Notes: generated by a model from the letters alone, not told the origin. 64,000 nucleotides of DNA from Psammoneis japonica (GCA_008632985.1 QPGO01000241.1:1-64000); one strand, 5' to 3'; positions 1 to 55,667 are shown, counted from the stretch's first letter. Numbers and translations: made by a program.

Positions 1-1562
1 GGCAGCCCTTAAAGCAACCGTCACTGGCCGCTTGAGTCTCGCGATGTCTTGAACCAATGTTCAACGGTGCCTGATTGGCACAACAGCCCTTAGAGGTCAG
101 AATTGTGCCCTCGCAAGATGGGTCTCCATTGATGTAGATCTTCAATTCATTTTGGCTTTTAGTCACAACAAGATGGGTCCATGTGTGGGCTGGAATCTGT
201 CTTGCGCTGTCGATGCTGAAAATGTTGTCAGACCTGCAACCACCAAAGCAGCCCCCCACCCTTGCAATGCCGGTCTCCTCTTGAATTGCCATCCAAAAAG
301 CACCTGCCTTCTGAAAGATGTGGTGTTTGCGGCATTCAGCCGTGGCATTTTTATTTGCAATGACGGGAGTGTGCCGCACCCATGCCATCATGGAGTGCTC
401 ATCCATGTTCAGATTCTTTGCTTGCTGAACAAGCATGTGGTCATCTTTGCCATCGAAATGGCCTGCAGTCTTGGAAAAGCCAACGCTGTTGGACTGTGGA
501 TCACCATGTCCTCGAGTTGTGTCCCACTCCAATTCTCCCGAGTCTGTGTGCAGCTTGCCCTCCTTGGCTAAAGCATCCTTTGTCCAAACAGCTCGTTGGC
601 ACTTTTTGTTGCAGTTTGGGTCTGTTTGGGAGCCACACCTGTGTCCTCCAACATTTTTTTCAGTGTGTGCCAACAGAGACGTTTGTTGTCAGCGGCACCG
701 TGCTTGGTGTTGCACTGATTTTTTTCCACAAAAGATCCAGCTGGAGAGAATCCCACGCTCCAGGCATTGTTGAAATGCCACTGAATGGCGCCATCCTTTG
801 TTGCATTGTTGTTGTTGTGACTGCCTGTGTCAGTGAAAGCCAAACTTGTGTTTCCAAAGCCAACAAGCATCCAAGAATCAGAGCTTGCATCAGGGCGGCA
901 ACCATGCATCACGCAGTCACCTCCACCGCAGGCAGCCACAATCTGCTCATTGACTTTGTTTGAGCCATCACTGCAAATGCCCGAGTGGCACAGAGTCCAG
1001 CCCTTGCCATCAATCTCAGACTGGCACTTCTCTTCGGCAATGCCAGGGACAAAACCATCAAAGGTGCACTCAAGAATTGGTCCATCACATGGCTTGAAAC
1101 TGGGGAGACGGAATGATTTCATGGAAAGCTTCACACGGTTCTTGCCAATAAAAATGGGGGTGTCATCGGGTGAGTTGATGGTCAAGCATGCGCCCCCTTT
1201 CTTCAAAGCAAAGTCAAAACCATCCACATCACGTTTTCCCATGGCAAGGATGAAATTTGGAGGGTTGAGTTCATCATCTTCTTTTTCAAGGAGCGGGGAT
1301 TTCTTTTTGTGCCTGACGCCACTGGCTCCATCCGCCACCAATGTGCCAGTGATTGTTGCGGCATTTCCAGCCACAACAGCGCGCAGACTCCAGTTGTCGG
1401 AAAAAAGCACTTCCTGACAAGAAAGATGCCTTTGTCCTTTCTCTTGTTCAGATTGCCAACATCACCACATTTTGGTGCTACATCAGCAGAAATGACAAAT
1501 GGGAACTTCATCCAAACCAATGAAAGGACTGTCTGTAGAATGCTGGGGCAAAGGGCTTTCAT
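1..1562 (-). pseudogene. Decayed copy of the secreted LamG-domain gene (runs off the window start)
   Basis: Colinear with 14010-15641 and 24180-25817. Tyr replaced by Cys/His (LCYSG->LCHSG, GDYVMYG->GDCVMHG, QWYF->QWHF). Frameshift near 1400 (ggaaaaaagcac vs ggaaaagcac) and a deletion/stop near 568. Confidence 0.92.
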
Positions 1563-1761
1563 CTTGACTTTCAGTTTCACAACAGAGACGACTGAGCTTT
1601 TTTGTGACAAGAAGGTTCTTTCTTCCTGACCATGCCTCTGCTCTCTAATCTGGTTTGCGGATTCCGAAACATTCATGAATGGTGCAACTTGGCATGATTC
1701 TTTTTGTTCTTTCTTCTGCAGGTTGCAGGATGCAGGGCATCGCACATTCTCCGCTTTGATG

Positions 1762-7700: not shown

Positions 7701-8120
7701 AGAACTTGATCAGAATGAGGTCGTGTCAACCATCAAGATGCATGCGTGCTGCTCAACTCAATGCAAAAGGGCAACAATTTGTCATGCACTGCAGACAGTC
7801 ATTTGAACAAAACATTTTTAACACGTCACAAGGGCAGCAGCTGAACTGGGTTGCAACCCCTGTGTGTCACACGGTGCACGTGTGTGGCAAAAGTTGATGC
7901 CAAAATCACCATGGATTGCACACACACAGAAACGAAGATGTGAGCATGCAGCGGTTGAGGATCACAACATGCGCTCACTCACGTGGGGCCCACGCACGAA
8001 CTCCTGTTGCAACCTGGATGCTCCATGACAAACTGTCAGCTCCTGACAACTCTCACAAAAATTGATGTAAACTCGCCATGTGTTGCGCACTTGTGAACTC
8101 CTGTTGGAACCCGGATGTTC

Positions 8121-8230
8121 CACTCACTCACTTGCTCACTCACTTGCTCACTCACTTGCTCACTCACTTGCTCACTCACTTGCTCACTTGCTCACTTGCT
8201 CACTCACTCACTCACTCACTCACTCACTCA
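8121..8230. repeat. Degenerate tetranucleotide microsatellite (CTCA/CTTG mixture)
   Basis: cactcactcacttgctcactcacttgct... with 4-bp period and two alternating variants. Confidence 0.9.
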
Positions 8231-8759
8231 CAAATGAAGCTTTGACATCACTTGCCCTGGTGGTCAGTGAAATGACTCAACAAAAAGTCTTTTGTGCAAG
8301 ACTTGCAAGGACAAGGCATGACAAACAAAGAGGTGCATTTGCAGAGAAGAAGAAAGAGCTTTTGAGAGAGTCAAATTGCCCAGAGTTGAGAAAGCGAGCT
8401 GGACACATGATTTGGCAAATGGGCACTGGCTCCATTGGATTCCATCTGAAATGCTGAAAGATGGAAACAATGGTCAGCAGGTTGCTGCTCTGCTGGGCAA
8501 CTCTTGGGCCACTGCTGGTGTGTGACCCACAGCACCCTGCCCAGAAAGATGAAAAAAGGACAAACCACTGTTGAGCCACCAAGTGAGCAACCTCCTTGTT
8601 GTGACATTGTTTGTGGTTCACATGACACCATTCTTGGCTCTGGTGGTGGTTTTGGGAAGCTTGTGACCAGCACACATGGGGTGTGAGACAGCATGCCCAC
8701 CCTGCTCCATCCTGGTGGCTGGTGTGATGGATTGGTCCTGCATCTGTCTGGCATCAGCA

Positions 8760-11700
8760 TTTGGCAGATGACGTTAGAATGGAGTCCCTTGTTGCCAATG
8801 TGTGCAGCACCAAAACAGACACAAGGAATTTGTCAACACACTTGAAGACAGCATCTGCAACTGTGGTGCTCCCTCCAAGCTCATCAGCGATCATGCCCAT
8901 GTTGAGATCAGCAATGAAGACCTTGGCATCCTCTGTGTTCTCTCAATGTCTGGTTGGCAGAGTGAGCCCCACCAACAGCATCAGAATTTTGCTGAACAAT
9001 GCCACCAAACCTTGAAGAACATGGCCAACACTGTCATGGATCAGATCGGCTCCCCGACCTGCACTTGGTTGCTTGCTTTGATGTCTGTGTGCTTTGTCCT
9101 CAGCCACATGGCATCCTCCAAGCTTTGCTGGTGCACCCCCACCAAAGTGCTGAGTGGCTCCACTCCAGACATCAGCCCCATCTTTTGATTTCAATGGTTG
9201 GAGCCTGCATGCTGCCACCTCAACGATTCTGACTGGCCACCCAAATCCCGTGAGTTGTGCGGTCATTCTGTCAGCATTGCCAAACATGCGGGCCACCAAA
9301 TGACCTTCAAGACACTTTCTGATGAAACTCAGAAGATTCTCTGTTGGTGCAACATCTGCCCTGCTGCCTGCAACCCTTTGGCTTACAATTTGCATGTTGA
9401 TCATCCTCCTGATGTGGGGAGTCTGTCACACCCATCATCAATCCCTGCCATGACTCTCCAGATTCAGAGAATGAGGAGGAGATTGGGATGCCCAAGGTGC
9501 CAGTCTTTGACCCCCCAATGATGTCACTGGACATGCCTTCCTCATGAAGCCACAAGAGGATGGACAGCACCACAGAGCCCACATTTTCAAGGCCATTGAG
9601 GACCGTGAGATTGGGAAATTGGTGGCAACCCAGAACTTGTCAAGATCATTGGCTCAGCTGACAATGATGAACGCAAAGAAGATTTGGCCCACACACTGAC
9701 GTCATCCATCACACAGAGCAAAAAGACAAGGACACCACTCTGTTGAAGTTTCATCACATCATCTCACATGAAGGGCCATTGAGACCTCACAACCCCTCTC
9801 AGAAAGGCTTCTTGAGCTGCAACATCATGCTCAAATGGGAGAGTGGAGAGATCACACCCAAATTTCTTGCCATCATTGCCAAGGATGATCCCATCACCTG
9901 TGCCATCTGTGCATGTGAGAATGGTCTCCTCAACACTGAGGGATGGATGCACTTCTGCACCATGGCACAATGCCAGAAGAAGCTGCACTGCACTGCATGG
10001 CCAACCAAGCCAAGCTGTGCTCATTTTGCACTGCACCATGCTGCAAGTGTGGGTGCAAAGTGCCCCAGGACTGCAAGCATGCGTTGGCCCTTGTTGAGCA
10101 CAACTGGCAAGTGCAATGTTTTCCATGATTGTGGACACTGCAAAAGAACTCCAATGATCCAGCAGGACACAAGAAGATCAATGTCCAACATGATGGCAGG
10201 CACAAAGTGTGACTCTTGTCAATGGACACCTCACCAACACACCTGTGGACGGCATCCACTCTTGAGTGGTGTCCCTCTGCAGCCTCTGACTGATGATCTT
10301 CCCAGCCGAACTCAGTGAGTTAGAGACATGAGCCACCAACACTGGCAATGCTTGCCTCAAAGCCATGACCAAGGAGAAACTGTGCATCATTGCAGGCCCC
10401 AAATTTGGTGGATTGGAAGGACACATCCTCATCATCCACAAGGCACTGCATGGCCTCTGCAGCTCCAGCAGCCTCAGGTGGCATGAATGCTTTCCAACAT
10501 CTGACTGTGCCAGAATGGCAATCATTGCAAATGTGCGGCAGTGCATGTGGATGACCTGTCCTCCTTTGCCATGAAAGACCCCAAAGACTTCATCTGCACC
10601 CTCACTGAGAAGCACAAGTTCAAACTCAAGGGCACAGAACCATTGGAGTTTCACCTTGGTTGCAACTTCTCCCATGATCCTGATGGCACATTGTGTCTTG
10701 CCCCCTTTGACAATGGAGACCACCCTGAGCTTGACACATTGGAGCTGCTTGGCCCAGATGGGGTCTGTCAGTTCCAGCCCTTGGTTGGATCTCTGCAATG
10801 GGCTGCATCACTTGGTTGCATTGACATCACTGCAGCTGTTGTGTCTCTCTCTGGCTTCTGCACAGCACCCCATCAAGGCCACATGGATCACACCAAGTGT
10901 GTCTGTGGATGCTTGTCCAAGATGCAACATGGTGCCCTGTGTGTGCGCACGGAGGAACCAGATCATTTGGACCTTCCCAAGCCCACGCATGATTGGGCTG
11001 CCACTTTTTGCGGCAATGTGGAGGAACTGGTTCTTCCCACAGATGCACCCGAGCCTCTTGGCAAGTTTGTCACTGCAACTCATTGCGTTGATTCAAACTT
11101 GTTCCATTTCATGCTTGCTGGACACTCCATCACAGGCACCATTCATTTCCTCAACAAGCTCCTGGCTGATTGGTTCTCCAAGGAGAAACAAGCCACAGTT
11201 GAGACTGCAACCTGCAGATCTGAGTTTGTTGCTGCCCGGATGTGCATCAAACAGATCATTGATCTGCACATTGCCTCACCTTGGCACACCAATCCATGAC
11301 AGATGTCACACAATCAAGGATGACAAGTTAGTTGCGGACAGTGCTGCCATCCCACACTCCAAGTTGTGCAAGCAACACACTGCCCTCTCATTCCATCATG
11401 TTCATGAGACAATTGCCTCTGGCTTTGTTGAGCTCCACTTCATTGAATGTTCCTGGTTCCTGCAGTCCCGCTGACATTCTCAGCAAGCACTGGGGTTGCT
11501 CACAACTTTGGAATCTTCTCTGTCCTTTCATTTTCTGGAATGCTTTGATCCCAAGGCCTTTGCAGCCAATCTGAAGTTGAGTCTGTTTCTGTGGCTCCCT
11601 CAAGCAAACTGGGGAGTGACAGGATTTGAACAGGGTTTCATTTGTTTGTTGCACACAGATGTGTGTGCTGTCAGTTCTGCACACATGGCCATGTGATGCA

Positions 11701-11840
11701 GTTTTGCTCTCAAGCCACTGAGCTCACAAGAACAACAACAGCAGCACCAATGTCATGACACACATCTTTTTGGGCTCCTGTGATGGCATCTGCACAGACA
11801 CTCATCTGCTGTTTAGACAGCAGTGAGAAGTCATTGTTTT
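8760..11840 (+). mobile_element. Decayed Ty1/copia (CoDi-like) pol with PPT and truncated 3' LTR
   Basis: Integrase (KEFVNTLED..GAPSKLISD..SEPHQQHQN), RT (HVDDL at 10544) and RNase H (KQATVETAT..SEFVAAR, PADILSKHWG) fragments. PPT AACTGGGGAG followed by TGACAGGATTTGAACAGG at 11617, the same LTR family as 51758/55391. Confidence 0.88.
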
Positions 11841-11959
11841 CACAAAGATTGACCAACACATGACAAATGCAATGCAGCTGCAGCAGCCAACAGCCAACTG
11901 GCACCAAAAAAGACAAAACCTCTGAAAGCACCTCTCCTGCTGAGCAAGGATGACAGATG

Positions 11960-13660
11960 AGTCTGATCAACCCAGCAGTGATCTCGCCAAATCACAGGCA
12001 ACCAAATCAGGGCAAAGAAGCCAACCAACTAAACTGTTGGTCAAAGCCACACAGGTGGTCAAAAATTGTTGTGCTTGCAATGCAAGAGGTTGAAGGCAAG
12101 TTGATGTGTTTGGCAGCACTCTTTCCAAAAGACTGCCAAGTGCCAGAAAAGACCAAGGCAGATGACTCCCTCCTGGCACACAAAGCACCAGCACATCCAG
12201 ACACAATGTGTGTGCATGATGCAGTGAAACAACCTGGTCAAAAGGAATTTCTGAAAGTCATGTTCAAGGGGGTGTGATGGATCAAATGAAAAATGGAAAC
12301 TTGTTTTCCATCATTCCCAGGCCAGAGAAACTGAGAATGGAGACAAGGCATTTTTGCTGGCTGTGTGGGGCAGATGAAATGCAAGAGAGACACCAAGACT
12401 GGAAAAGTCAAGAAGTGGAAGGCACATCTCAACACAGACAGATCACACGTGCAAAAAGGAGCAAACTTCCAAGAAAAATGTGTGCCGGTTGCTTCAAGGA
12501 GGAGTTTGACTCAAATGCTGCTGACACTCACTGCAGCTTTTTAACTGGGTCACATGCCAGCCATTTCACAAGCACTGGTTGAAAATGAGCTGTGCAAGGA
12601 GATGCCAGCAGGTTTTGGGCTGGGGAGAGGGGGGGAGGGGACACAAAAAAGTTTGTTCTGAAGCTCCATCAGAATGTTTCCAGACAGAAACAAGCAGGCA
12701 AAGTGCAGAGCCAGTGCTTGGCAAATGGGTTGATCAATGAGCTGGGATTCAAGCAATCAAAGATTGATGAGTGTGTCTTCTGCAAAGGAAGGACATTGTG
12801 CATGCTTTGCATGGACAACTCAATGTGTTGGCAGGACCAGACAAAAAGGAGACAAATCAAGTTGTTGAGGATTTGGAGGCTGCCAAGCTTGGCATCACAG
12901 TTGAAGGGGACATGCAAGACTCTTTTGAGGTGAACATTGATCACAAGATGGACGGCACTGCCCGTCTGACTCAACCACATCTGATTGCCACCCCAGGTCT
13001 ACCTGCAAATGGGTGTGCCAGCACTGTTCTTGCCAAGAGAATTCCAGCTGCACATTCTGTGCTCCTCTCAAGACACTGTGGCTCAGCTTTGTTTGATCCA
13101 TCTTTTAACTTTTGCTTTCTCATTAGAAAACTGAGTTGCTTGGAAAAGTGCACCCTGAGCAACATCACCCACCTGCATCACTTCTTGTCAAAGCACTCGG
13201 TTCTCAGCAGATCCCAAGGTGGGGTGCATTGGAGAGCCATTTGGTGGATGGGTTGGCATCTGCACATGACTGAGGACAAGGGAACTGCTCTCCAAGTGGG
13301 AAAAGGATGGGATCTTGAAGTGTGCAGATGCTGATTTCAGCAGCAGCTCAGATCCCAAGGAGGCAACAAGTGATCGCAACACCACTCACCCTCATCATGG
13401 TCACATCATTGCCTGCACCGGTTGCCCAACTCTTCACAAGTTGCAACTGCAAACCAAGATTCCTTGCACTGCCAAGCACTGAAAGTGAGCATGGAGGATT
13501 GTTTCAGCCCTCTTTGGGGGAGGCAACTCCTCATGCCCAACTGCTGAAGGAACTGAAGGCACAAGGGCTTCCAACTCAAACAGCAAAAGCCAAGGTTTGC
13601 TGCAAGGTGTTCAAGGACAGCAGCAGTGTGTTGGAAATGGCAAAGGTTCACAAGCATCAC
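11960..13660 (+). mobile_element. Decayed Ty1/copia RT-RNase H fragment (second family)
   Basis: AHPDTMCVHDAVKQP..EFLK, GFKQSKIDECVFCKG, LTQPHLI, ALPSTESEH, KVFKDSSSVLEMA. Many frameshifts. Confidence 0.8.
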
Positions 13661-15641: not shown

Positions 15642-16515
15642 CTTGACTTTCAGTTTCACAATCGAGACGATTAAGCTTTTTTGCGACAAGAAGGTTCTCT
15701 TCTTGACCATGCCTCTACTCTCTAATCTGGTTCGCGGATTCCGAAACATTTATGAATGGTGAAACTTAGCATGATTCTTTTTGTTCTTTCCTCCCACCCA
15801 AACTGCAGGTACGGTACAGTTAGTAATGCAGGGTATCGCGTTTTCTCCGCTTTTGGCCATCGGCATCTTCAATGCGAGAGGTCGCGAGTCGCGAGCAAGT
15901 GAGTCTTGGTCCGTGTCGTGCGGACTGTCTGTGGCACGTCGTAGATAAAGCGAAAATGCCAGTTAGATTCAATGAATGTTCTTGCTCTAGAGTGGCTACA
16001 GCAGCAGCTGCTCTAGCCAGTCAAATTTGTTGGCGTCTTGGTGAGTCCCGGGTCACAGCCGTTGCTTTTTTCTTGGAAAACGCAACAAAGAGGCAGACAA
16101 AAGCAGGAGGCCTTCAAACATTTGATGCATCTGACACATGTTCATTCCCCAACTGAAAGAGTGCTCCAGAATGAGACCTTTGCCTTGGCTCCAACAGGGT
16201 CAGGAACCGCGGAGATTGACGCTGTGCACTCAATCAACAAAAACAATGGGGGATTTGTCCACAAAGGTGGTGACAACTTGGCTTTCAGCAACAGGCAGCC
16301 ACAACGTTGCCACTTTTGAATTCGAGTTTGAATCCTTTTTACATCAATCAGCAAAATGAGCACAGTGCAATGGATTTGCTTTGACGTGAGAAACTGCAAT
16401 GTGGGCCCCATGTCAAAGCTGCCCAACACCAAAACTGATTGTGTGGGAGAGGCAAGATTGTGGCAGAAGGGGGGAGAGGAGAAACATTTTTTAATGCTGC
16501 AAGTGTGGCAGGCAG

Positions 16516-17350
16516 TTGACAGACCTCAGTGCCTCTCTCCTCAACAACGCCATCCTCATTCTCACCACTTTCTGTCAAAGCATCATGTTCATTGTCTGGT
16601 GTTGCAAGACATTTGTTCAAAGCAAGTGACTGCACTGCAGCATCAACATTTCCCAGCACAAACAAACCCCAATCAGGTTTGTCAAATGTCCTGCCAGCTG
16701 GCACACTGACAAACCCAAATTTTTGATGCAGTTTCACAGTGGCAACATGTGAATGCCCACCTGCCACATGAAGCATGGCTCAATTGTTGTTCAAAGAACA
16801 AGCTTCATAGAGCAAACAGGCAAGAAGCAGAGAGCCATGCCCGTTTCCCCAAAATGGCTGCTTCGCTGCCAAGAGCTCAATCTTAACCCACCAATGGACA
16901 AGACCATTGACTGCATCTTGTCTGTTGAGATCTTGCCTGTTTGGTGCTTTTCCTCTTGGCAAACTTGCGGTGTCATTGCTTGGAGATGCTTGGCACAACC
17001 AATGCAAGGGTTGCTCTTTCATGGATGCCAAATGCACACACAAAGCCTCAAAGTTGACCCAACTTTTCATTTCATCATCTGGCACCTCGCGCCAAAATGC
17101 CAACCCCACAATTTCATTGTTTTCCTGGTTTTAGAGCATCAAAAAATGCAGCATGCCTTCACAGTTGTCCTCCACAAAGGCTTCAAATGATGTCCTTTCC
17201 ACGTCAATCAACAGCGCATTTCCTTGACAAAATGACTCGGCAGCATCAAGCACATCCGCGGCTGACATTGGAGTCTCCAAAACACAGGACAAGTGGTGGC
17301 ATTGAGACACCTTGGCTGGCCAATCAATGATGACAACTGCTCTGCTGCCA
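16516..17350 (-). pseudogene. Decayed copy of the GNAT gene
   Basis: Colinear with 3769-4690. GNGYG->GNGHG and KLYQKF->KLHQKF. Stop TAA->CAA, an internal deletion and frameshifts. Confidence 0.9.

Positions 17351-18224: not shown

Positions 18225-18269
<45 letters not shown>
18208..18269. repeat. (GAGCCA)3 followed by a (GA)n microsatellite
   Basis: Directly visible in the sequence. Confidence 0.9.
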
Positions 18270-18271
<2 letters not shown>

Positions 18272-30200: not shown

Positions 30201-31925
30201 CTGAAATGATTGTGGGAATCACTGTCGAGAATGGTGCAAGGGCGCGACAGAAGGACCCAACATGAAGAAGCAACAGGGCAAACACCGGAGATCAGGGAGT
30301 GCCTAGATTTTGGATTCTGCGACCCAGTTTGGTGGTGGGATGGACCCAATTCAAAGCCAAGTGCAACTGAAGATCCTGGACAACTCAGGAGGTGGCTTGG
30401 TGTGTCACACAAGGTCAGATCGGACATGTGTCATTGGATTGTAACCAAGAGCGGCAAGTTGGTGTCCAAGACTTCAGTGGAGCACATTGTGCACGCAGAT
30501 CATGTCAAATTGGATAAAAGGAAATGGATTGATGAGTTCAGTGAGGCTTTGACGAGACGGTTGGATGATGCAAACTTTGTCCTTGAGGGCGATGAAGTGG
30601 TCCTAGCATTTTGCTTAGATGATTGCGCGATTGACAAGGACAGTGGAGTGCAGCATGAAGGATGTGCAATGCCAGATGACAAAGAACATGGTGACATGCC
30701 AATGGATGATGAGCGCCCCGATGTTGATGACAAAGAGGCCACAGACCAGTGGGTTGGCATGGAACTAATCCTTGATGTTGGAACAGAAGGAGAAAGACGT
30801 TGTGCAGTCACAAAGAGAGCGAGAGGTCACAATGGTAAACCAACAGGAAGGAGACACCAGAATCCACCATTTGGCACAAGGGAGTGCAAAATTGAGCATG
30901 CGGATGGGACCACAGACAAGCACACCACGAGTGTCACAGTGTAGAATGTGTTTCCTCAGGTTGACGACAAGGGTCATCAGTTCTCTGTTTACATGAAGTG
31001 CAAGACCACAGGATGACACGGGAAGCAATCTCAAAGGATGGTGGTGCAGTCGAGACTGCAGTGGGTCAGAGTGAGAAGAAGACAACAACAAAAGGTTGGG
31101 AGTTGCTGATGGCATGGAAAGACGGCAATTCCGACTGGGTCAAGTTAAAAGACATCAAGGATTCTGACCCCATTGAAGTGGCAGAGCATGCAGTGGCTGA
31201 TCGGATTGCTGATGAACCAGCATTTGCTTGGTGGGTGCCTCATGTGCTGAGGAAGCAGAACAGCATTGTGTCAAAGGTCAAGTCAAAGTGTTGGCAAATC
31301 ACTCACAAGCTTGGGGTCAAGTTGCCAAAGAGCATTGATGAAGCATTGCAGACAGATTGCAAAACAAGGAGATGACTGAGGCAAAGGCAGCATGGGAAAT
31401 GCAGCATGCCTCGCCACTGGACAACATGGCGAGACCGTGCATGAGCCTCTTGTGCGTGGCAACGTAGTGTTGTCAACACGCACCTGGGAAGCACGACCAC
31501 AGGAGGGCGTGGCTCCAGGTCTTGGGCAATTCCAGAAGGATGCTAAGAGAGCATCCGTGTGAAGCACACTGGCCCATCGTCTGGCCCACGATGGTGGCGT
31601 GATTCCACACGATGACATCACTCGTGCATGGCGCGTGATGGCTTGATTCGCACGATCCACAATGCGAACGCACGATCGATTTAATGCGATCCAAATGCGA
31701 ACGAATGGGGATTTGGCAAGATTCCCTGTTCGCACGATCCCATTTTCTCTACTCCAAACTAGCTCACAATTTTCACAACGACAAAGTCGTAACACATCTT
31801 CTTTTTCAGCGCCTGGCACATGCATGGGGCACAGCAACATTGCTCCCGCATGTTGTGCGAGGTAACGAAATCTACAGAAACGAAACTACGAAATGTTGGC
31901 AGGACCGACAAATCTCAAAACGACC

Positions 31926-32969
31926 ATGAAGAAGCGGACCAAGCCGCTGATTCCATTCGCACGGCCGGAGAAGAAAGAGCCACAGCAGGGCGAGTGCCAG
32001 ACGTTCAAGCTGCGCAACAACCCTGCTGATCCAGACAGTCCAACGCACGAGATGGGCATCCTGCACCTTTCTGCGGCTACATGCGAGACACTCCCAATCT
32101 TTCTGCGCAACGTGGATCGCGTGCACAAAGGACAAAACATCACGACCGGGCCAGCGAAATTTGCCCTTGTGCGTGACCTGCTACAGGGCGATGCTCTGAC
32201 ATCATTCAATGATGCCGCTGACAAGCAGGCATCCCAAACCAACGCCACGTGCACAGCATGCGTTGCGAAGCTAAAGGAAGGCATCTTCCCAAATGGGGCG
32301 GCACCATTGCAGAAGCGTCATCTGCGGCGCTTCATGTGCAAGCCCGCAGAGGTTTCCACTCGTGACTGCATTGCGAGGGCTGTTGAAATTAACGGCTGTG
32401 TCTCTCAGTTTCCACCCAGGATGGAGGATGGAGAAACACTGGCACCATCACCCAATGATGAACCACGCGACATGTTCGAGTGCGGTGTGCCGAACGCATG
32501 GCAGAAGTTCATGACGCCACAGAACTTTGACCCGTTGGCGCATGCCATCGCCGAATTTGTGCAGTTCTGTGAGCGCATCGAGCAGGTCGAGCTTGCCGAA
32601 GGTAACCAGGACCAACATGCCAAGGTTCCACGCAAGCGGGGATGTAGAATGGACAATCCTGAGTCGTTGATCACGACCCAGCGGAACACCCAGAAGTCGT
32701 GCATGCTGCACGGGACCAACTGTGGACATGATGTGGAAGATTGCCGTCAGCTCAAGCACCACGTGAAACGTGTCAAGACTGGACATTCCAATGACGGAGG
32801 CGGCAAGCCTGACACAAAACCTCGGAATGAGGAAGATGTCAATGCTCTCATCGGATCGAAGGTCGAGGAGTGCTTTGCCAACGCTCAGAAAAAGCGCAAG
32901 GCCCGCGAGGAGGAGCTCAATCACTTCCGCGACCTCAACTTAAGTGATTCCGAAGATTCGGACGCCTGA
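31926..32969 (+). pseudogene. gag: Gypsy gag (open frame but Tyr-free)
   Basis: FKLRNNPADP..., LQKRHLRRFM, zinc-knuckle-like CMLHGTNCGHDVEDC. No Tyr in ~348 aa. Confidence 0.8.
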
Positions 32970-35900
32970 GAAGGGGGCCGACACGATGCAGGTGGTTTTA
33001 ATGCATTGGACGAATGTGCAAATGAACAACTGAATTGCCATCGTACACATGTTGTGGGCCAATCCCGCAAATGAGTTAAAAAGACTCATCTCACTCCAAT
33101 CTTGTTTGCAGCTGTGAATGCCAAACATGGCAAGGGCAAGACTCAAACCATCAAGGCACTACCAGACAGTGGCGCCAGCAGCACTCTACTCGATGGTCGA
33201 CACTGTAAACGTCTGCGAAGCCATTCAACGGCTGAGACAAACTGGACTACGGTGGCAGGCTCGTTTAGTACGTCTAACGACTGTACCGTTAAATTTCGGT
33301 TACCAGAATTATCCGAAACTGCAGAACTTGAGCACACCGTCCACGTACACAACGGAAAGTTGGGCAAGTACGATATGATTATTGGACGTGACATTCTGGA
33401 GACACAAGGCATTGACATTGTCTTCTCTAAACAGATGATAGAGTGGCCATTAGTCAATGGAGAAGTGCCAATGAGGCACGTAGATGCTACGGTGGAAACC
33501 TCCTTCTATCTTCAAGATCCAGAAGCCTTATCTTCGGAAACTGACCGGATTTCGCGTATTTTAGACGCTAAGCACGCGCCGGCCTGCCTCAAGGACATAA
33601 CGCGAGAGGCAATAGGACTTTCTATGTTCAACAAAACGACCTTTTGGCACTATTGAAACGCCATGAGTCCTTATTTGATGGGACATTAGGAGAATGGAAG
33701 GGAGAACCCTACCATATCCAACTCAAGGAGGGTGTAGAACCATGCCACGCTCGTCCGTGTAAAGTACCTCGTGCGTACGAAGCTACGCTACGTAAAGAAG
33801 TAGAACGCCTGGTGCGCATCGGTGTTCTCAAACGCGTTAACAGATTCCAATGGGCAGCTCCATCATTTGTCATGCCGAAGAAAGACTTAACGGCACGCTT
33901 TGTCAATGATTTCAGAGAGCTGAATAAACGGATCAAGCGATTGCCTCATCCGATTCCTCACATCCAAGATGTGCCACTCAAGCTCGAAGGCTTCATGTGG
34001 GCTGCATCGCTGGGTCCAAACATGGGCCATTGTCATGTCCGATTGGATGCTGACAGCAAGAAGCTCTGCACGCTCATCTTCCCGTGGGGCAAGTGTGAGA
34101 TGCAGGTGTTGCCCATGGGGTTGTGCAGCTCGCCAGACATTCTCCAAGAACGCATGTCAGGCTTGTTTGAAGATCTGTCGTTCGTTCGAACGCACTTGGA
34201 TGACCTTCTCGTCGTGACGAAAGGCACCCATGAAGATCACCTCAACAAACTTGAAGAAGCTTCACTGAGGGTCCAGAAAGCATGACTAAAAGTCATGCCA
34301 CTGAGTCTCACTTCTGTCAAACCCAATTAGAGTGCTTGGGTTGTCTGGTCAACAGAGACGGAGTGTGACCAACACCTGACAAAGTCGACGCCATTGAGCG
34401 AATCGCGACCCCAACCAACAAATGCGACCCACGTTCATTTGTTGGCATGGTGAACTGCCACCGCGACACGTGGATCAGACGTTCTGAAGTCTTGGCTCTG
34501 CCAACACGACTCGCAAGCGAGACTGTCAAGTGGGAATGGACGTCCGTTGAAGACGAGGCATTCGAAACCGTCAAACGGGTGATGTCGGATGATGTTTCAT
34601 TGTCACATCCTGATTTTAACAAACCCTTTGAGATGCACACCGATGCCTCTAAATGTCAATTGGGAGCAGTTGTGTCCCAAGACAATGAACCTGTCGCCTT
34701 TCACAGCAGAAAGCTTGACAATGCGCAACTAAATTGTGCAACAACGGAGAGAGAATTGCTCGCCATTGTGGAGACGTTGAAAGAATTTCGAACGATTCTC
34801 CTTGGTCATCATGTGATCATGTGTGCTGATCATAAAAATCTGTGCACAAAGCACTCAATGCCGAGCGCGTCATGCGCTGGCGGCCAACATGCGAAGAACA
34901 CGGTCCCGAATTATGCCATGTCAAGGGCACCCATGACCCAGTCGCTGATGCTCTCAGTCGCCTTTGACCAGCCACCAGCTTGCCTTCCGAGGCCAATCCG
35001 GATGTAAAAGACACTCCATCGAGTCGTCCTTTGCATGAAGCCTTTAATGCAGATGCTCAAGATGAGCCATCTCTGCCTGTTGGCTTCAAGCGCATTCAAA
35101 AAGCACAACAAAAGGACAAGCGCCTGCTCTCACGAGCTGAGGACTCGTCCGACTGCTCCATTCGTGCGCATCGTGGGGGAGGGTCATCACGACAGTTGAT
35201 CTGTCATAAGGACAAAATTGCAGTGCCACAGTCATTGCAGGCTCCGCTAACTGAATGGTGCCACGAGACACTGTGTCATCCAGGTGAGACACGTGCGGAA
35301 ATGTCCATTGCCCAGCACTTCCATTGGCCCAGTGTGAGGTCTGCGGTGCATTCTACGTGCGTCAAGTGCGATCGATGCCAGAAGACAAAACGCCGAACGC
35401 AGCGTTGTGGGAAGCTGCCAGAAAAGGTCGCAGAGACAATTCCATGGGAGACTCCATGCATGGACATGACAGGGCCATGTAAAATTCAAAGACGCGGAAA
35501 GGACGCCTTGCAATTGTGGGCAGTCACAATGATTGACCCAGCAACCGGGTGGTTCGAGATTAAAGAAGTGTCTGCGAAACGCGCAGACGTCGCAGCAAAC
35601 GTCGTGGAACAAACGTGGCCATGCAGATGTCCGTGGCCAACCCAGGCAGTTTATGACCGTGGGACAGAATTTATGGCAGAATTCAGCCAGATGATTAAAA
35701 ATGACCATGGGATTTTGAAGAAACCCATGAGCAAACGGAATCCACAGGCAAATGCCACAGTGGAACGTGTGCACCAGACACTTGGCAACATGGTGCGTTC
35801 CTTTTCAGTGCAGGATGTGGAACTGGACGAAGATGACCCATGGAGTGGCATCCTCTCCGCAGCAGCCTTCACCATCAGAGCTGCGGCACACATGACCACG

Positions 35901-36224
35901 CGTGCAAGTCCCGTGCAATTGGTCTTCGGACGCGATGCGGTTTTGTCTGTTGCCCATCGTGCTGAGTGGAAGCACATAGAAACCAGAAAGCAGAAGCTTG
36001 TCCACTTGGACAACAAGCGTGAAAATCAGAAACGGAAGGAGCATCAATGTGCCGCAGGGCAATTGGCACTTGTCAAACAGGAACAATCCTCTAAATGCGG
36101 TTCTGACAGCCATGCAGGACCCGCCAGAGTTGTCCGTGCACATGACAACGGCGCGTTGCGCATCCAGAACGGAGCGCTGACAGACACGTGTGATCTACGG
36201 CAGATTGTACCCCATCACCAGTGA
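32970..36224 (+). pseudogene. pol: Gypsy pol (PR-RT-RNaseH-IN), frameshifted
   Basis: PR ALPDSGAS and DMIIGRD; RT RFVNDFRELN, LPMGL, RTHLDDLL; RNase H HTDASK..LGAV..TTERELLAIVE; integrase zinc finger H..H..C..C, DRGTEF, NPQANATVER. Confidence 0.92.
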
Positions 36225-39029
36225 GACATTCTGTCACTTGACGGCCCTGATCATGGGGGAATGTGCAGTGTGCCTCGCTGCTGGACAACACGGCGAGACC
36301 GTGCATGAGCCTCTTGTGCGTGGCAACGCAGTGTTGTCAACACGCACCTGGGAAGCACGACCACAGGAGGGCGTGGCTCTAGGTCTTAGGCAATTCCAGA
36401 AGGATGCTAAGAGAGCATCCGTGTGAAGCACACTAGCCCGTCGTCTGGCCCACGATGGTAGCGTGATTCCACACGATGACATCACTCGTGCATGGCGCGT
36501 GATGGCTTGATTCGCACGATCCATAATGCGAACGCACGATCGATTTAATACGATCCAAATGCGAACGAACAGGGATTTGGCAAGATTCCCCATTCGCACG
36601 ATCCCATTTTCTCCACTCTAAACTAGCTCATAATTTTCACAACGACAAAGTCGTAACACATCTTCTTTTTCAGCGCCCAGTGCATGCACAGGGCAGAAAA
36701 GCATGATGGTGAAACTCTGCAACAAGTTCATGAAGGGAAGAGTCAGAAACTGCATGGACATCAAGAGACACAGTGCCACATGGTGTTTGACATCAAGATG
36801 GACATCACCCGCAAGGCCAGGTTTGCAGCTGGAGGTCATGCTGCAAAAGCACCGGATTCAATCACGCACTCAAGCATTGTCTCGAGGGACAGCACACGAA
36901 TTGCTTTTGTGCCAGCAGCTTTAAACGACGTGGATGTCACTGTGATCCACTTGGAGAATGCTTGCTTGAATGCGCCGTGTGCAGAGCAGATATGGTTTGA
37001 AGGTGGAACTGTGTGTGGCGAGTTCAAAGGGTGCACACTGGTTGCAGTGAGATTGCTTTGTGGATTGAAAAGCACAGGGTTTTTGTGGCAATCAGCATTT
37101 TCTTCTGCTTTGCAAGACACAGGTTTCACACCAACACAAGCAGATCCCGATGTGTCTGCAAGCAGCAGTTTGCGAGGATGGGCACAAACATCATGAGATG
37201 CCATTGGTCTGTGTTGATGACGTGTTGATGACATTGCATCAAGGCAAGTCAGTTGTCAAGTCCATTGCCAAGCATTGCAAGGTCAAGCCTGGGAGTGAAG
37301 GAGAACCCAAGACTCATCTGGGAGCAATGACAGAGAAGATTCAGACACAGGACAGTCACATGATTTGGGCCAGTTCGCCTGAGGACTGCATCAAGAATGC
37401 AATTGAGACAGTTGAAAACCTGCCAAGTGAGGACGGTGATGGTGCAGTCTTGAAGAACAATGTGAAGGACCCATTCCCAGCAAAGCACAAGCCAGAGCTG
37501 GATGTGATGAACGAACCAGGTCCTGATTTGATGTCCCGGTGTTTGAAGCTCATTGGAATTGCGAGATGGGCGATTGAGTTGGGCTGCATTGACATTTTGC
37601 ATGAAGTGTCCTTGCTTTCTTAATGTCAGGTGAACCCAAGGAAGGGCCACTTGGAAGCCTTGTGTCATGCATTTGTGTGCATGAAGAAGCACCCGAGCCA
37701 AGGCAGAGTCAGATTTGATCCCAAGAGTCCCAAGATCAACGAGTTTGTGTTTTTGACAGTGTGGCAGATTGGACCAAATTTTGTGGCAACATCGAGGAGA
37801 GTTGCCACCTAAGATGCCCAAGCCACATGGAAACCTGGCAACCATGCACACTTTTGTTGATGCAAGTTATGCTGGAAACAATGTTGCACACAGGTCACAC
37901 TCCGGCATCATTGTCTTCGTCAACAATTCTCCGATCATGTGGTTCAGCAAACGGCAGAATGCGGTTGAGTTTTCTGCTTTTGGGAGTGAGTTAGTTGCGA
38001 TGCGCATTTGCAAGGATGCGCATGTTTGGAGCACTGCTCAATGGGCCGGCAAATGCATTTTGCAACAACTGTGGTGTGGTGAAGAATGTCAGCATTCCAG
38101 AATCTACATTGCACAAGAAGCACAATGCAGTCAACTGTCATGCAGTGGAGAGGCAGTTGCAGCCAGAATTGTGAGAGTTGGAAAGGAAGATGCAAAGATG
38201 AATTTGGTGGATCTGTTGATGAAGCTTGTGACAGGTGAAAAGCATTGGCAGTTGTGTTCATTCATCTTTTGGTGAAGTCCATTGCAGCCAAGGTCCAGGG
38301 CTTGTAACTCGCACTCATGCCTTGTGATCTCCCAAGCCAGACCAACTGGTGGCAAATTGGGTTTGTGTTTTGCCTCTCAGGGGGAGGATGTTTTGAGCAG
38401 ATGAACCAACACAGCCATGTCGGCTCGTGGGGACCAAGTGAATCCCAGTGGAGTGGTCTGTGTTTGGTCAGTGTGTGGAATGTGTGGGGAGCATGGGAGG
38501 AGAAGCCTGATTGGCTCCTCATGTGACATCCAATTGCACAGGAATGACAATGTAGAAATGAGTGCATCGACAAGACAAGGGCAAGAGTGTTGTGGCACAG
38601 GCCATGACACTGCATCAGCATTTGTTTGAATCTGGGGCTGGAGAGCTCTCCAGTTGCTGGATGGGCTCAACCACTCACAATCTTTGTGTGACAACATGAG
38701 TGCAGCCAACAAGATGCTTCTGGGCCTGTTGCAACTGCCAAAGTCACAACAAGTGAACATGTTTCATGGTGATGAGCTGTTTCCCTCCGACACCACGTCA
38801 CAGTTCCACCACTTCAACTTTTAGAGCACAGAACACAAATTCCTGATGCTCTGGATTTCACTCAGTCCCCTTGAAATGTTCCTGGCAGACTTGACACTTG
38901 ACAGGGACAATTCAGCCTGATGCTGACCCAGTGTCTCCTGAACAACAATCACAATCTCTGAGCATGGCCCAAACCCTCACCAGGGAAGAAAATCACCACC
39001 GCTCCGCATGTCAAGCTCAATGCATGAAT

Positions 39030-51607: not shown

Positions 51608-51757
51608 GTCTTCTTTTCAGAAAAGAAGCATGCCTGAGCTCCACACCTTTGCTTTCAGCTCTGCTGTGCTGTTTTGTGTGGATGAGCCAAAAGGAATGAC
51701 AAGCAAAGCTGCACAGGAAAATGAAAATGACACAATTTGCTGTGCATGTGTGTCGCG

Positions 51758-54700
51758 TGACAGGATTTGAACAGGATTCAGGTGCGCGTGAAATGTCGCG
51801 CGCTGTTTAGTTTACCGCGCCACAGTTTTGTGTGCTTTGGTTCCGCGCGTTCGCACGCGATGTAGTTTGCTTTCGAGCCACAAGGCTCACAAGAACAATG
51901 ACAGTAGCCCGATCACACCGACTTGCACATCTTTCGGCTCCTGTGACGGTCTCTGAGCGGAGACTCATCTGCCATTTAGACAGCAGCAAGGAGTCATTGT
52001 TTGAATTCTTGCCATTTGCCTTCAACTTCTGTCAGATCAACAGTCTTGCTCATTGTCAACCCATTGAGCAACCGCCATCGTCGTCGTTGATTTGCCGACG
52101 ACGCCATTTCAATTCTGCGTGGATCTCCGCACACATTCTATGTACATCGGCAAGTCTGTGCGCATTCAATGCCAGGCATCGGCAGGAAGTTAACGTCACC
52201 GTCAAGTCTCCTTGCCGCTGGATTGATTGCACTGCCTTTCATTGCCGAAGACATGCATTCAACGGTCACATCCAAGTCTGTCCTTGATCCTCATCCCTTG
52301 ATGTACCCATTCAATGGTTAACGGTCAAGAACCCTGCACATTCAAGGATCTTCGTCGCTGAAGACACACATGTGCACATGTCTTCACGGCCAAGAACTTG
52401 TGCCCACTCTTTGGACTGCGGCTTTGCCACCACTCTACAAGCACACCGAGTCCATTGTACCTGATCTGCCCCGGACTGCTGGTGCCCCACAGTTCCACCA
52501 GGTCCACGAGGACGACTGTGAGAGCAAGTGGCCGTGATTGCAGCCTACGTTGGGGCGAGGGTGTTTTTTCCTGCGTTTGTTCGTTCGTCCACAGCGCCTG
52601 ATGCCTGCGTCAACTGGCCAGCCTGATCGGGAAATCCAACTGACACAAAATAAGAACAGTTCGGGGGTCTTGTCCACCTCTAGTCAGCTTGCCTGCAGGG
52701 GTTTGCAACCCGCCACTCCGCTCGCAAGCAACCCAAAGCGCCGCCAGCTGCGGGTTCGGACGTGCCGGCACAACTCTACGGACCGGATGGGAAGTTTAGC
52801 ACTTGACAACGAATGGGACAGCACAGCCCGGCAACTTCTGATTTTAAGACAGTCCAAGATTTCAAGTCAAGTCTAGCTCAAGTCAAGTCTTTTTCAAGCC
52901 AAGTTCCAAGTCAAAACTCCGAGTCAAGATCGTGCTCTAGAGACGCGTTCCAGATGCAGGTGGGAATCCGTGTGACATTGGGCCCGTAGACTTCTACGTG
53001 CGAGCTCCGTGGCAAAATTGTGCGGTGATTAAAATGTCAATGATTGCCAACAGAAAATGAGGCAATTTTGCGAACGCACAAACTCGCACATGATTGAAGC
53101 ACATCATTTTTTACTCAGCCAGTTGCATTCTTCAGACATTGAAGAATGCAACTGGTGCATCATTGTTTCCATAAATTTGTCATGTAAAATGTCTGGGGCT
53201 TCGCAAAACAGCGAGTCTGGACAATTTTTTTTAAATGTCACACGCAGAAATCTACGTGCGAAACATGCGACGGATGACAAAAATTGTTGTTGTCACACGT
53301 CAGCACTGCGAGCTCCCACCCAGGGCTGGAATGCATCTAGATTGGTTCCTGTCTTTTGTTTCCACTGCACCGTCCTCCGTCATGGTTCTCACGTGACAGC
53401 AACAAACCGAAAGCTTCAAACACATTCCAGGCACTGCACTCAATCAAGACGATGACAGCCCTCTTCGTTCTGCCCTGTCCATCAATGGGATTGAATCGTG
53501 TGAGGAATTGTTCATGTTCTTGCCCACCCAAATTGATGCCCTCACTTGCAGAGACGGCACCAATGCAGTGCCTTTGCCGCGGACCCACAGAAACCTCCTG
53601 GCAGCTTTGATCAGCTTCTACTTTGTCAAAGTTTGCAACAGTGATGATGTGACCAATGAACCCCAGTTGCTCACACCCGACGAATTTTGCAACTACCGCC
53701 TTGGTCCGGACCACTTGACCTCTCCAGCCACTGGCGCAGCACCCTCCGCACCTGTGCCGAGTCCCTTGCCATCCAAACCAGGTGAACCCAGTGCCATTTT
53801 GACACCAGCCTTGCACTGTGCCACCACTCAGGTGTCCCCCAGAAGTGGTGTCAGTCGCGCCCTTCATGTCTTGACCAACCCGCCTGCAAGCAACCTCGGC
53901 CCAGTGCAGGATTGCAGCCCTTGCACAGGCCCGCACTTCGAGACCAGTTGGGACACTCTACCCATGGCTTCCAAAGCTGCAGTCTTTGCACCCCGCAAAC
54001 CACGTGCTGCCAACCTCCACGTGTCGACCGCTGTCACCCTTCACAGTCTTCGTTTGGGAAGTGATGGAGATGACAACTTGCTTCTCGCATCTCCTGATGG
54101 GGAGCCTCCTTTTCCCATCATTGAATCTGTTCACAACAGTTCAACCGGTTCATCAGATGGGGAGTTCAGGACATCCAAACAGCTTCGTTGTCTTTGGATG
54201 CCCCAAGTGTCGTACCTCGAGACCAGGTCTCCTGGTTGGATCCCCCAAGTCTCGCACCTCGAGACTGGGCCTCCTGATTGGATGCCTCAAGTCTCGCACA
54301 TCGAGACTGGGCCTCCTGATTGGATGCCCCAAGTCTCGTGCCTTGAGACCAGGCCTCCCAACTGGACTCTCCACATCTCGTGGTTCCCGTCATTGAATCT
54401 GTTCACAACAGTTCAACCGGTTCATCAGATGGGGAGTTCAGGACATCCAAGCAGCTTCATTGTCTTTGGATGCCCCAAGTGTCGTACCTCGAGACCAGGT
54501 CTCCTGGTTGGATCCCCCAAGTCTCGTGCCTCGAGACTGGGCCTCCTGATTGGATGCCTCAAGTCTCGTACATCGAGACTGGGCCTCCTGATCGGATGCC
54601 CCAAGTCTCATGCCTTGAGACCAGGCCTCCCAACTGGAATCTCCACGTCTCGTGCCTCGAGACCGGGCCTCCCAATTGGATCCTCCACATCTCACACCTC

Positions 54701-55667
54701 AAGACTCGGCCTCCGGATTGGATCCCTCAAGTCTTGCACCACGAGACTCGGCCTCCTGATTGGATCTCCCAAGTCTCACACCTCAAGACTTGGCCTCCTG
54801 ATTGGATCCCTGAAGACTCGTGTCACAAGACTGGCAAGTCCTTTTGGATCCCAGAAGTCTTGCAGCATGGGACTGGTTGCCCCAATCAGACATCTGCAGC
54901 CTTGCACCACAAGATGTCTTGCTCCAATCCAATCCCCAAAGGCTTGCACCTTGAGACTCGTTTCTCCAATTGGATCAGTCTCTCAGGAGATGCAGCTGAG
55001 CTTGCAATCGGATTGGTGGAACACAAGACCACTGCTTGTGCCTTTGAACTCATGCTTGCTCTGTTCCCCGAGTCATGCAAACACCATGCCGCCTGCAATG
55101 TTGCCCCGCCGTTCAACATTGTCAACCAGACCAAGCTTTGCTCCTTCCATTGCAAGTGCGGATGTGGAATCCCACAAGATCCCAAGTGTGCCTTGAGCTT
55201 TGAAAAGCACAACGGCATCTGCAATTGGGGAGACGCAGCTCATCTCAAGATGACCCACTTGGAGAATGCAACGTTGCTCTTGGATCTTGATCCTTTCTTG
55301 TCTCCTCATGTTTTGGTGCTTTGACTCCAAAGTTCTTTAGTCAATCCAAAGTTGAATCTGTTTCTGTGGCTCCTCAAGCAAACTGGGGAGTGACAGGATT
55401 TGAACAGGATTTGGGTGCGCGTGAAATGTTGCGCGCTGTTTAGTTTGCCGCGCCACAGTTTTGTGTGCTTTAGCTCCACGCGTTCGCGCACGATGCAGTT
55501 TGCTTTTGAGCCACAAGGCTCACAAGAACAACAACAGCAGCCCAATTGTACTGACTTACACGTCTTTCGGCTCCTGTGACGGTCTCTGAGCGGAGACTCA
55601 TCTGCTGTTTAGACAGCAGCAAGGAGTCATTGTTTGAATTCTTGCCATTTGCCTTCAACTTCTGTCA
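51758..55667 (+). mobile_element. Internally deleted (non-autonomous) copia LTR element
   Basis: 277-bp LTRs at 51758-52034 and 55391-55667 with TGACAG...CTGTCA ends. TCGCG target-site duplication, PPT AACTGGGGAG. Gag-like remnant near 53510-53900 and pre-RT remnant IPQDPKCALSFEKHNG..WGDA near 55170. RT/RNase H absent. Confidence 0.92.
54118..54990 (+). repeat. 42-bp tandem array (PQVSYLETGPPDW[M/I]-like 14-aa units) plus a ~270-bp duplication
   Basis: ccccaagtctcgcacctcgagactgggcctcctgattggatg repeated, decaying toward the 3' end. The block at 54118-54388 is repeated from ~54389. Confidence 0.88.

Follow-up and report, generated by a model that had tools for sequence, protein, structure and literature searches.

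A gypsy LTR pair and dead gene copies point to TpA-directed hypermutation of silent DNA in a diatom-like nucleus

Introduction

How can two long terminal repeats (LTRs) that go back to one template come to differ at 19 sites, each of them a transition within a pyrimidine-purine (YpR) step? The question is raised by a Ty3/gypsy retrotransposon located at 31400-36695 in a 64,000-nucleotide stretch from Psammoneis japonica (QPGO01000241.1:1-64000), which is called the window below and in which all coordinates are given. The answer that we consider probable is a DNA-level hypermutation acting in the silent DNA of a diatom-like nucleus, by which TpA is turned into CA or TG.

Transition hypermutation of silent DNA has so far been known as cytosine chemistry, in the form of repeat-induced point mutation (RIP), decay of 5-methylcytosine (5mC) and APOBEC activity. 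RIP of ascomycete fungi changes C:G to T:A, mainly CpA to TpA; it enriches TpA and creates stop codons. An A:T to G:C process limited to TpA is the subject of a single report, from 2026 and on one alga. According to that preprint, integrated viral DNA in mutation-accumulation lines of Bigelowiella natans undergoes localised TpA hypermutation, with 231 of 302 new nuclear substitutions falling in two integrated viral regions and 230 of these 231 being A>G or T>C changes, every one at a TpA step (Mettrop et al., bioRxiv 10.64898/2026.01.13.699255). The rate was about 6e-7 per site per generation in these regions versus 3.5e-10 elsewhere, a difference of about 1000-fold, some lines and not all were affected, and the authors proposed an ADAT2-type adenine deaminase (10.64898/2026.01.13.699255).

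Results

The two LTRs differ at YpR steps only

The carrier of the LTR pair is a single Ty3/gypsy insertion, because its LTRs have TG...CA ends, a GAAA target-site duplication borders it and an older copia element continues on both flanks. The features of the element and its host are as follows (RT, reverse transcriptase; PR, protease; IN, integrase; obs/exp, observed over expected frequency).

31396..31399, + strand: target-site duplication GAAA, left copy; older copia-like pol flanks both sides
31400..31831, + strand: 5' LTR, TG...CA, with 6 TpA remaining and 30 CpG
31832..36263, + strand: internal region, gag-PR-RT-RNaseH-IN, in five broken frames; TA obs/exp 0.31
33160..33930, + strand: largely escaped patch of about 770 bp, with 5-9 TpA per 100 bp against 0-2 elsewhere
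36264..36695, + strand: 3' LTR, TG...CA, with 12 TpA remaining and 32 CpG; 19 YpR-only differences from the 5' LTR
36696..36699, + strand: target-site duplication GAAA, right copy, pairing with the left one
36657..37196, + strand: copia-type RT fragment (RVT_2 domain match) of the older host element; surrounding TA obs/exp 0.08-0.17

The domain order PR-RT-RNaseH-IN is that of Ty3/gypsy, with matches to RVT_1 (E = 6.4e-07), RT_RNaseH_2 (E = 1.7e-29), Integrase_H2C2 (E = 9.2e-11) and rve (E = 1.7e-05) and a weak match for the protease, and its relatives reach at most 60% identity.

Alignment of 31400-31831 with 36264-36695 by MAFFT gave 432 columns with no gaps, 406 of them identical. All 26 differing columns were transitions, and they resolved into 19 sites: TA facing CA at six, TA facing TG at four, CA facing TG in adjacent columns at seven, and CG facing TG or CA at one each. 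Neither a transversion nor a transition outside a YpR step was present in the 432 columns. The seven reciprocal CA/TG sites lie at columns 6-7, 16-17, 307-308, 328-329, 415-416, 418-419 and 426-427, and the differences as a whole are scattered from column 6 to column 427 without forming a tract. CpG was kept in both LTRs at 30 sites and differed at two. A preliminary description of this locus had reported two 432-bp LTRs with 19 differing sites and no indels, divided into ten of TA versus CA/TG, seven reciprocal and two of CG versus TG/CA, with no other substitution and with most CGs intact in both copies; the MAFFT alignment reproduced this account exactly, and the three reciprocal examples quoted there were located at columns 6-7, 16-17 and 328-329.

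The pattern is not chance, because YpR steps cover just 56% of the LTR columns and because control pairs show another spectrum. As controls we used 28 terminal-repeat pairs among 79 related elements from metagenome contigs, with the reservation that these pairs may have arisen by joins in the assembly and not be genuine LTRs. Their 448 differences comprised 188 transversions, 121 non-YpR transitions, 62 of TA against CA/TG, 55 of CG against TG/CA, 18 other transitions, three of CA against TG and one of CG against TA. Differences of the TA type thus made up 65/448 in the controls versus 17/19 in the gypsy LTR pair (Fisher P = 4e-12). The element as a whole is also TA-poor, with an obs/exp of 0.32 against a median of 0.81 (range 0.56-1.06) in the 79 related elements.

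The window has one other LTR-like pair.

51757..52034, + strand: second LTR-like pair, left repeat, TG...CA; partner at 55390-55667
55390..55667, + strand: second LTR-like pair, right repeat; partner of 51757-52034

Their 23 differing columns include four of CA against TG, six of TA against CA/TG, eight of CG against TG/CA, one other transition and no transversion. Comparison of further LTR pairs had been proposed as a check, and its outcome favoured the preliminary description: this sole further pair in the window was likewise judged YpR-only, with the one "other transition" in its count.

Support for TpA as the ancestral state

Two models for the origin of the LTR differences were compared by their site counts. 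With TA as ancestor, independent loss in the two LTRs predicts 3 sites of TA/TA, 12 single and 6 reciprocal, close to the observed 4, 10 and 7 (chi2 0.83; P = 0.67). With CG as ancestor of the reciprocal sites, 24 CG/CG, 14 single and 1 reciprocal are expected against the observed 30, 2 and 7, and this model was rejected (chi2 47; P about 1e-5). The fitted TpA loss amounts to about 67% per LTR.

Outgroups set the polarity of the change in the coding region. When the RNase H-integrase part was compared with 120 homologues, at least 60% of which agree at 365 conserved columns, none of 20 conserved tyrosines was kept in the gypsy copy, which has nine Cys, nine His, one Thr and one Phe in their place, while other residues were largely retained (His 9/9, Cys 7/8, Trp 13/13, Arg 26/28). 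A second set of 79 related loci, compared across the whole of gag-pol, gave the same picture: Tyr was kept at 2/28 conserved columns, with ten replaced by His, 11 by Cys and five by other residues, and His was kept at 15/16 and Cys at 11/12. Even the Tyr of the RT motif YXDD, present in 64/64 relatives, is His in the gypsy copy (34193-34195). Single-step exits from TpA in a Tyr codon are TAY>CAY, giving His, and TAY>TGY, giving Cys.

The base context of the replacements agrees with this. Conserved columns with a replacement number 99, and a few of these (36261-36270) are located beyond the frame end and are doubtful. One base change explains 73 of the 99, and 26 need at least two. The 73 comprise 20 A>G and 20 T>C changes within TA, two that are either A>G in TA or transversions, five CpG decays, nine other transitions and 17 transversions; C>T at CpA was found at none of them. 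Of 51 A:T>G:C replacements, 40 to 42 are inside TpA. The TpA ancestry claimed in the preliminary description is therefore supported by the LTR count model, by the loss of conserved Tyr to His or Cys (21/28) and by base context.

Dead gene copies carry the same changes without RNA passage

The window carries segmental duplicates of host genes, two of which contain a dead copy with an intact counterpart.

1..1757, - strand: dead Laminin_G_3 copy A; intact copies at 14010-15749 and 24180-25895
16512..17348, - strand: dead GNAT copy; intact copy at 3769-4908

At 37 sites that are TA in both intact copies, the dead Laminin_G_3 copy shows CA or TG; no change runs in reverse, five TA are shared, and the losses of the dead copy amount to 37/42 TpA (88%) versus 20/50 CpG (40%). 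In the dead GNAT copy 24 TA of the intact gene have become CA or TG, with one change in reverse and one TA shared, corresponding to losses of 24/25 TpA (96%) and 28/34 CpG (82%). In both pairs the dead copy alone is affected, although selection on the live copy could mask hits on both. Parsimony among the three Laminin_G_3 copies alone is compatible with a root on branch A, and it was the contrast between live and dead copies that settled the root.

Because dead segmental gene duplicates carry the same changes, RNA editing and RT error were excluded as their source. It had been proposed that mutation took place in situ after integration, on either strand, and was neither RNA editing nor RT error. 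Both parts hold: the two LTRs differ from each other, the 40 changes within TpA divide equally into 20 A>G and 20 T>C, and dead gene copies that were never retrotransposed and never passed through RNA show the same loss.

The duplicates died reciprocally when segment 1-4908 is compared with 14084-17348 (and 24254-26020), the first segment having a dead and hypermutated Laminin_G_3 and an intact GNAT and the second segment the opposite. Hypermutated domains track dead genes rather than duplication units.

TpA is left in a single step and outside transcription units

A TA that has turned into CA or TG is no longer a target, and conversion thus stops there and almost never goes on to CG. Among 11 other repeat pairs in the window, doubles of CA against TG numbered 47 and doubles of CG against TA two. 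Strands are used equally, and the runs tests on the two dead gene copies gave no same-strand clustering (P = 0.78 and 0.51) and therefore no sign of processive one-strand bursts. A mild neighbour preference was found: the converted A alone precedes C at 29 sites and the unconverted A alone at six (P = 1e-4). This preference for TAC, which read for T is a preference for GTA, was strong in the gene copies (22 vs 2) and weak in the protein-inferred set (7 vs 4). G was not enriched at +2 after the converted A, as it would be in TACG, the loop motif of TadA. The TpA that survive in 1-1757, 16512-17348 and both LTRs (n=10 sites) are mostly in Y-TA-R context, which fits slower conversion where neither A precedes C.

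Across the window, obs/exp is 0.28 for TA, 0.57 for CG, 1.53 for CA and 1.56 for TG, and the TpA frequency is 1.8%. A map in 500-bp steps separates two kinds of DNA, with 10-45 TA per 500 bp in transcription units and 0-3 in nearly all else, and with island borders that are sharp at this resolution; about 60% of the window lies at 0-3 TA per 500 bp.

2501-5000, 13501-16000, 23501-26000, 40501-47000, 56501-64000: TA-normal transcription-unit islands in the 500-bp TA map
5001..13500, no strand: fully converted non-genic domain, with 0-2 TpA and 109-133 CA+TG per 500 bp
16001-23500, 26001-31400, 36700-40500, 47001-48000: similar converted domains, low in TpA per 500 bp

The affected targets are LTR elements, dead host-gene copies and unannotatable DNA, and no viral insert was seen in the window. 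Genes escape the process itself and not merely its effects via selection, because TA is not stripped at the synonymous phases of the kinesin gene (obs/exp 32/50 and 34/59) and because the 47 differences within an intact duplicate pair with a carbonic-anhydrase domain form an ordinary spectrum that includes 22 transversions. The kinesin-14 gene has 795 uninterrupted codons; its best named matches are from Seminavis, Nitzschia, Thalassiosira, Skeletonema and Cylindrotheca, followed by the bolidophyte Triparma, and its best unnamed matches reach up to 63% identity across the motor domain. By these matches the organism is diatom-like, with no close sequenced relative in the libraries searched; a dinoflagellate origin was rejected because the named matches are diatoms, and Bigelowiella, which is absent from the 120 matches listed, was rejected too. 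The segments 44079-46377 and 56802-59703 are about 97% identical copies of a gene pair with WW-domain and eukaryotic-type carbonic-anhydrase domains; both are TA-normal, and the spectrum of substitutions between them is ordinary.

In affected DNA TA obs/exp ranges from 0.02 to 0.3, with 0.02 for TA and 0.11 for CG in the oldest domains, and TA and CG obs/exp correlate over 1-kb windows (r = 0.80). The nested gypsy element (0.32) is less TA-depleted than its copia host (0.06-0.17). Conserved Tyr was retained at 2/4 columns inside the patch at 33160-33930 and at 0/24 in the rest of the element. This patch has a normal TpA density and edges sharp to about 100 bp, and could be a boundary of process tracts, a protected stretch or the result of repair from an unmutated copy. 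A rate far above background had been claimed in the preliminary description. This agrees with the LTRs, in which about 67% of TpA was lost per copy, 2/32 CpG sites differ and no other base has changed; the rate for TpA is well above that for CpG, which in turn is well above that for the rest.

The gypsy family in sequencing-run contigs

Family states were taken from contigs of three public sequencing runs of the same sample (X1 to X3), with the element sampled as 31-mers, of which the best run, X1, contains 48%. The family is very abundant, with 5783 X1 contigs aligning and 1194 of them at least 99% like the window copy, and it varies by transitions at 367 of 377 variable places in X1. Family states are known for 40 of 383 variable places, two of them in the LTRs. 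At 25 of the 40, the letter of the window copy is in no contig; these include 11 with CG in the family against TG/CA in the window copy, three with TA against TG/CA, one with CA against CG, five other transitions and two transversions. The other 15 listed places are polymorphic, the family having TA at 1-66% of depth and the window copy CA or TG.

At gag codon 290 relatives have Thr in 39/50 and the TA state makes up 24% of family depth; this makes the minority TA ancestral and the majority TG derived, and a family majority is therefore no guide to ancestry here. None of 17 family TA variants in the gag frame makes a stop, too few stops being expected for this to count. A search of the metagenome contigs with the degenerate LTR pattern gave no match.

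Discussion

A probable TpA-directed process in silent DNA

The polarity of the change, its TpA specificity, strand symmetry, in-situ action and locality, and the ranking of rates, were all observed in the comparisons above. They are in all likelihood explained by hypermutation of TpA to CA/TG at the DNA level in silent DNA of a diatom-like nucleus. Such a nuclear process would convert 5'-TA-3' to TG or CA, the A:T to G:C transition falling on one or the other base pair of the step, and would work in place and on either strand over kilobase tracts that take in retrotransposons, dead gene duplicates and intergenic DNA, with transcription units being spared. The gypsy element would have inserted with normal TpA content and a working pol, and would then have been stripped of about two thirds of its TpA in each LTR and, across most of the interior, of about nine tenths. 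In that time just a few percent of its CpGs would have changed and almost nothing else. The product, CA or TG, would not be a target any more, so that CA and TG would be the final states and CG almost never would.

Several observations weigh against this reading or narrow it. The evidence is a comparison of sequences, and no enzyme, modified base or new mutation was observed. At 31683 (LTR column 284; 36547 in the 3' LTR), TG makes up 95% of family depth in X1 and the two LTRs carry TA, and therefore not every difference among TA, CA and TG in the family need start from TA; the gypsy copy may descend from an older sub-lineage of the family, or the site may have changed from TG to TA. The family state of the seven reciprocal LTR sites lies outside the 40 of 383 places covered. 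Within 31597-31713, a dominant short X2 contig carries the states of the 5' LTR where the 3' LTR differs, and some LTR differences could be family variants inherited via ectopic conversion rather than changes in place. Part of the CA/TG excess in old DNA is from CpG decay, since TA and CG depletion go together. The degree of loss also varied: the LTRs lost 67%, most of the interior lost about 90% and 33160-33930 lost far less. No single rate describes it.

Alternative sources of the differences

Cytosine deamination would run with the opposite polarity, TA being produced from CA/TG by 5mC decay at CpG or by RIP-like C>T change at CpA/CpG and the reciprocal sites being derived from CpG. It draws on the CpG-rich LTRs (30 and 32 CpG), on CpG decay that is real in the gypsy copy (11 places with CG in the family and TG/CA in the copy), on the correlated depletion of TA and CG and on site 31683, where family TG and TA in both LTRs fit a change from TG to TA. 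However, the CG-ancestor model was rejected for the counts of 30, 2 and 7 (P about 1e-5), C>T at CpA accounts for 0/73 polarised single-base replacements against 40 TA losses, the dead gene copies gained 0 and 1 TA and lost 37 and 24, affected DNA is TA-poor (obs/exp 0.02-0.3), the opposite of RIP, and doubles of CG against TA number two against 47 of CA against TG. This explanation is already contradicted for the bulk of sites, and we regard it as extremely improbable. Still less credible is that the copy inherited changes made before integration, by ADAR-like A-to-I editing with a 5' U preference or by RT error. The family is transcribed and copied via RNA by nature, and ADAR prefers U before the edited A (10.64898/2026.01.13.699255), but one template for both LTRs cannot yield 17 differing sites, A>G on the sense strand equals T>C (20 vs 20), and the pseudogenes in segmental duplicates carry the same changes without RNA passage. 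Misreading of a modified base at TpA in silent chromatin as G or C, with the real DNA being TA, could be suspected from the 48% of sampled 31-mers present in the best run and from the 25 listed places without any contig carrying the letter of the window copy. The missing 31-mers are, however, to be expected, since a family with thousands of copies has its rare variants dropped from contigs. Contigs of the same sample carry TA and CA/TG at the same places (TA share 1-66% at 15 places), 1194 of 5783 contigs are at least 99% like the window copy, depletion is graded with age (0.32 in the nested gypsy, 0.06-0.17 in the host copia) and it is accompanied by ordinary CpG decay. Moreover, the Illumina-sequenced mutation-accumulation lines of B. 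natans show the same changes as real mutations (10.64898/2026.01.13.699255). An assembly or base-calling artefact is thus, in our judgement, very improbable.

Two further alternatives accept that hypermutation is real. In one, the LTR pair is no clean clock, because ectopic gene conversion from another, already mutated copy overwrote one LTR and made the differences mostly family polymorphism. The size of the family (5783 contigs), the agreement of the dominant X2 contig with the 5' LTR and not with the 3' LTR at columns 261, 287 and 307-308, and the retention of twice the TA in the 3' LTR (12 vs 6) speak for such conversion. Against it stand the target-site duplication and continuous copia flanks of one insertion, the spread of differences over columns 6 to 427 with no tract, counts that fit independent loss in two copies, an LTR-implied loss (67%) of the same order as the loss of Tyr codons in the interior, and the example of gag codon 290, where the majority family state can be derived; we hold it to be improbable, if less so than the artefact. 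The other alternative shares the phenomenon and places it on thymine: T in TpA would be oxidised or modified in some other way, to 5-hydroxymethyluracil (5hmU) or 5-formyluracil (5fU) by a TET/JBP-type enzyme, as a mark of silent chromatin, and would mispair with G to give T>C. In sequence, T>C on one strand and A>G on the other look alike, the TAC preference is a GTA preference for T, and the target step is palindromic, like CpG for 5mC, and co-localises with CpG decay. In dinoflagellates thymine hydroxylation favours TpA, a point for which the literature search found no paper. Nothing indicates that P. japonica has such a base or such an enzyme, and the preprint authors favour adenine deamination and found an ADAT2 candidate (10.64898/2026.01.13.699255). 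Thymine modification thus seems to us unlikely, though clearly less so than the alternatives above.

The chemistry that we tentatively favour, at somewhat short of an even chance, is deamination of adenine to hypoxanthine in T-A context, T-A-C being preferred, by a deaminase directed to silent chromatin. The candidates would be of the ADAT/TadA-like class or another class of deaminase; TadA and ADAT act on A preceded by U. Adenine- and thymine-centred chemistries are equal as far as sequence alone goes, because A>G on one strand is indistinguishable from T>C on the other, and this too counts against a firm reading. What likelihood is left goes to a different chemistry or to a base-calling artefact. 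As to its role, the process may act in defence or may be the by-product of a chromatin mark. A bolder proposal, which is conceivable and more doubtful than not, is that the diatom-like lineage has a dedicated editing system, aimed at chromatin, that deaminates adenine or modifies thymine at TpA in all silent DNA. If so, it would be a mirror of fungal RIP, removing Tyr codons along with TAA/TAG stops, and would have remodelled the greater part of the non-genic genome; with the same signature in a chlorarachniophyte, it may be old and widespread in SAR (stramenopile, alveolate and rhizarian) eukaryotes, and a comparison of the two genomes could name the enzyme, possibly a natural double-stranded-DNA adenine deaminase.

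Relation to known systems

The window pattern is the same signature as that of B. natans in direction, dinucleotide, strand symmetry and locality. In both, changes are nearly exclusively A>G or T>C, in TpA only, on either strand and confined to regions far above the genome rate, and tracts are poor in TpA, rich in CpA+TpG and rich in unannotatable reading frames. The two cases differ in that new mutations were measured in two viral inserts, from a nucleocytoplasmic large DNA virus and a virophage, of a chlorarachniophyte (Rhizaria), whereas changes in the window of a diatom-like stramenopile are inferred from sequence and affect LTR retrotransposons, dead copies of duplicated genes and almost the whole of the intergenic DNA, with about 60% of the window converted. 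Overall TpA frequency is 6% in the B. natans genome, versus 1.8% in the window, and accompanying CpG decay, TAC preference and tract structure further set the window apart. A term search of the available preprint text found no mention of LTRs, retrotransposons or diatoms, and our literature search found no report of a TpA hypermutation signature for diatoms or stramenopiles. The process has thus been described once before, and the window represents a new lineage and a much larger scale.

The cytosine systems share parts of this picture. Like RIP, the process is an in-place, transition-only, dinucleotide-specific hypermutation of both strands that ruins transposons and gene duplicates and can be recognised by its dinucleotide footprint, but its direction is opposite: TpA is erased, TAA/TAG stops vanish and long false frames appear. 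RIP acts on duplications, whereas single-copy intergenic DNA seems to be affected in the window too. RIP was rejected as a candidate, with no C>T at CpA and no TpA enrichment in affected DNA (TA obs/exp 0.02-0.3). Decay of 5mC at CpG likewise concerns a palindromic YpR step in silenced DNA, with a transition on either strand to CA/TG, and occupies the same domains; it differs in being far slower, with 2/32 CpG differing versus about 67% of TpA lost. It was rejected as the cause of the LTR differences, since just 2/19 sites are CG against TG/CA and the CG-ancestor model fails. APOBEC (C>U on complementary DNA) and ADAR (A>I on RNA) also leave deaminase-type transition clusters in retroelements, but act before integration and on one strand, whereas here LTRs differ, strands are equal and never-retrotransposed DNA is affected.

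That the TpA process occurs a second time, much more strongly and in a distant lineage, shows that it is no peculiarity of two viral inserts and can dominate the composition of a genome. The second case also opens a comparative route to the enzyme, for which the TAC preference offers a test of candidates. LTR pairs and pairs of live and dead genes serve as built-in clocks, in which TpA goes first, CpG next and the rest last, and LTR dating from raw divergence would be badly wrong in such genomes. DNA stripped of TA, and with it of TAA/TAG, gives long false reading frames, such as one of 483 codons at 28758-30206, and homology searches fail.

Other features of the window

Three long open frames without Pfam match lie in DNA with TA obs/exp of 0.04-0.14, at 28758-30206 (+ strand, 483 codons), 48714-50030 (+ strand, 439 codons) and 10505-11471 (+ strand, about 299 codons). 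These are most likely false frames from loss of TAA/TAG stops, or unrecognisable remains of transposon genes. A Pfam scan of 27 long frames in TA-poor DNA found no match for 26, and for one it gave two sub-threshold matches to domains of unknown function (DUF). Inside the second LTR-like element (51757-55667), 42-bp tandem repeats at 54112-54890, in at least 11 copies that are 69-97% alike, sit within a 599-codon open frame without Pfam match. At the edge of a TA-normal gene island, 23648-23934 is a 144-bp tandem duplication whose copies are 99.3% identical.

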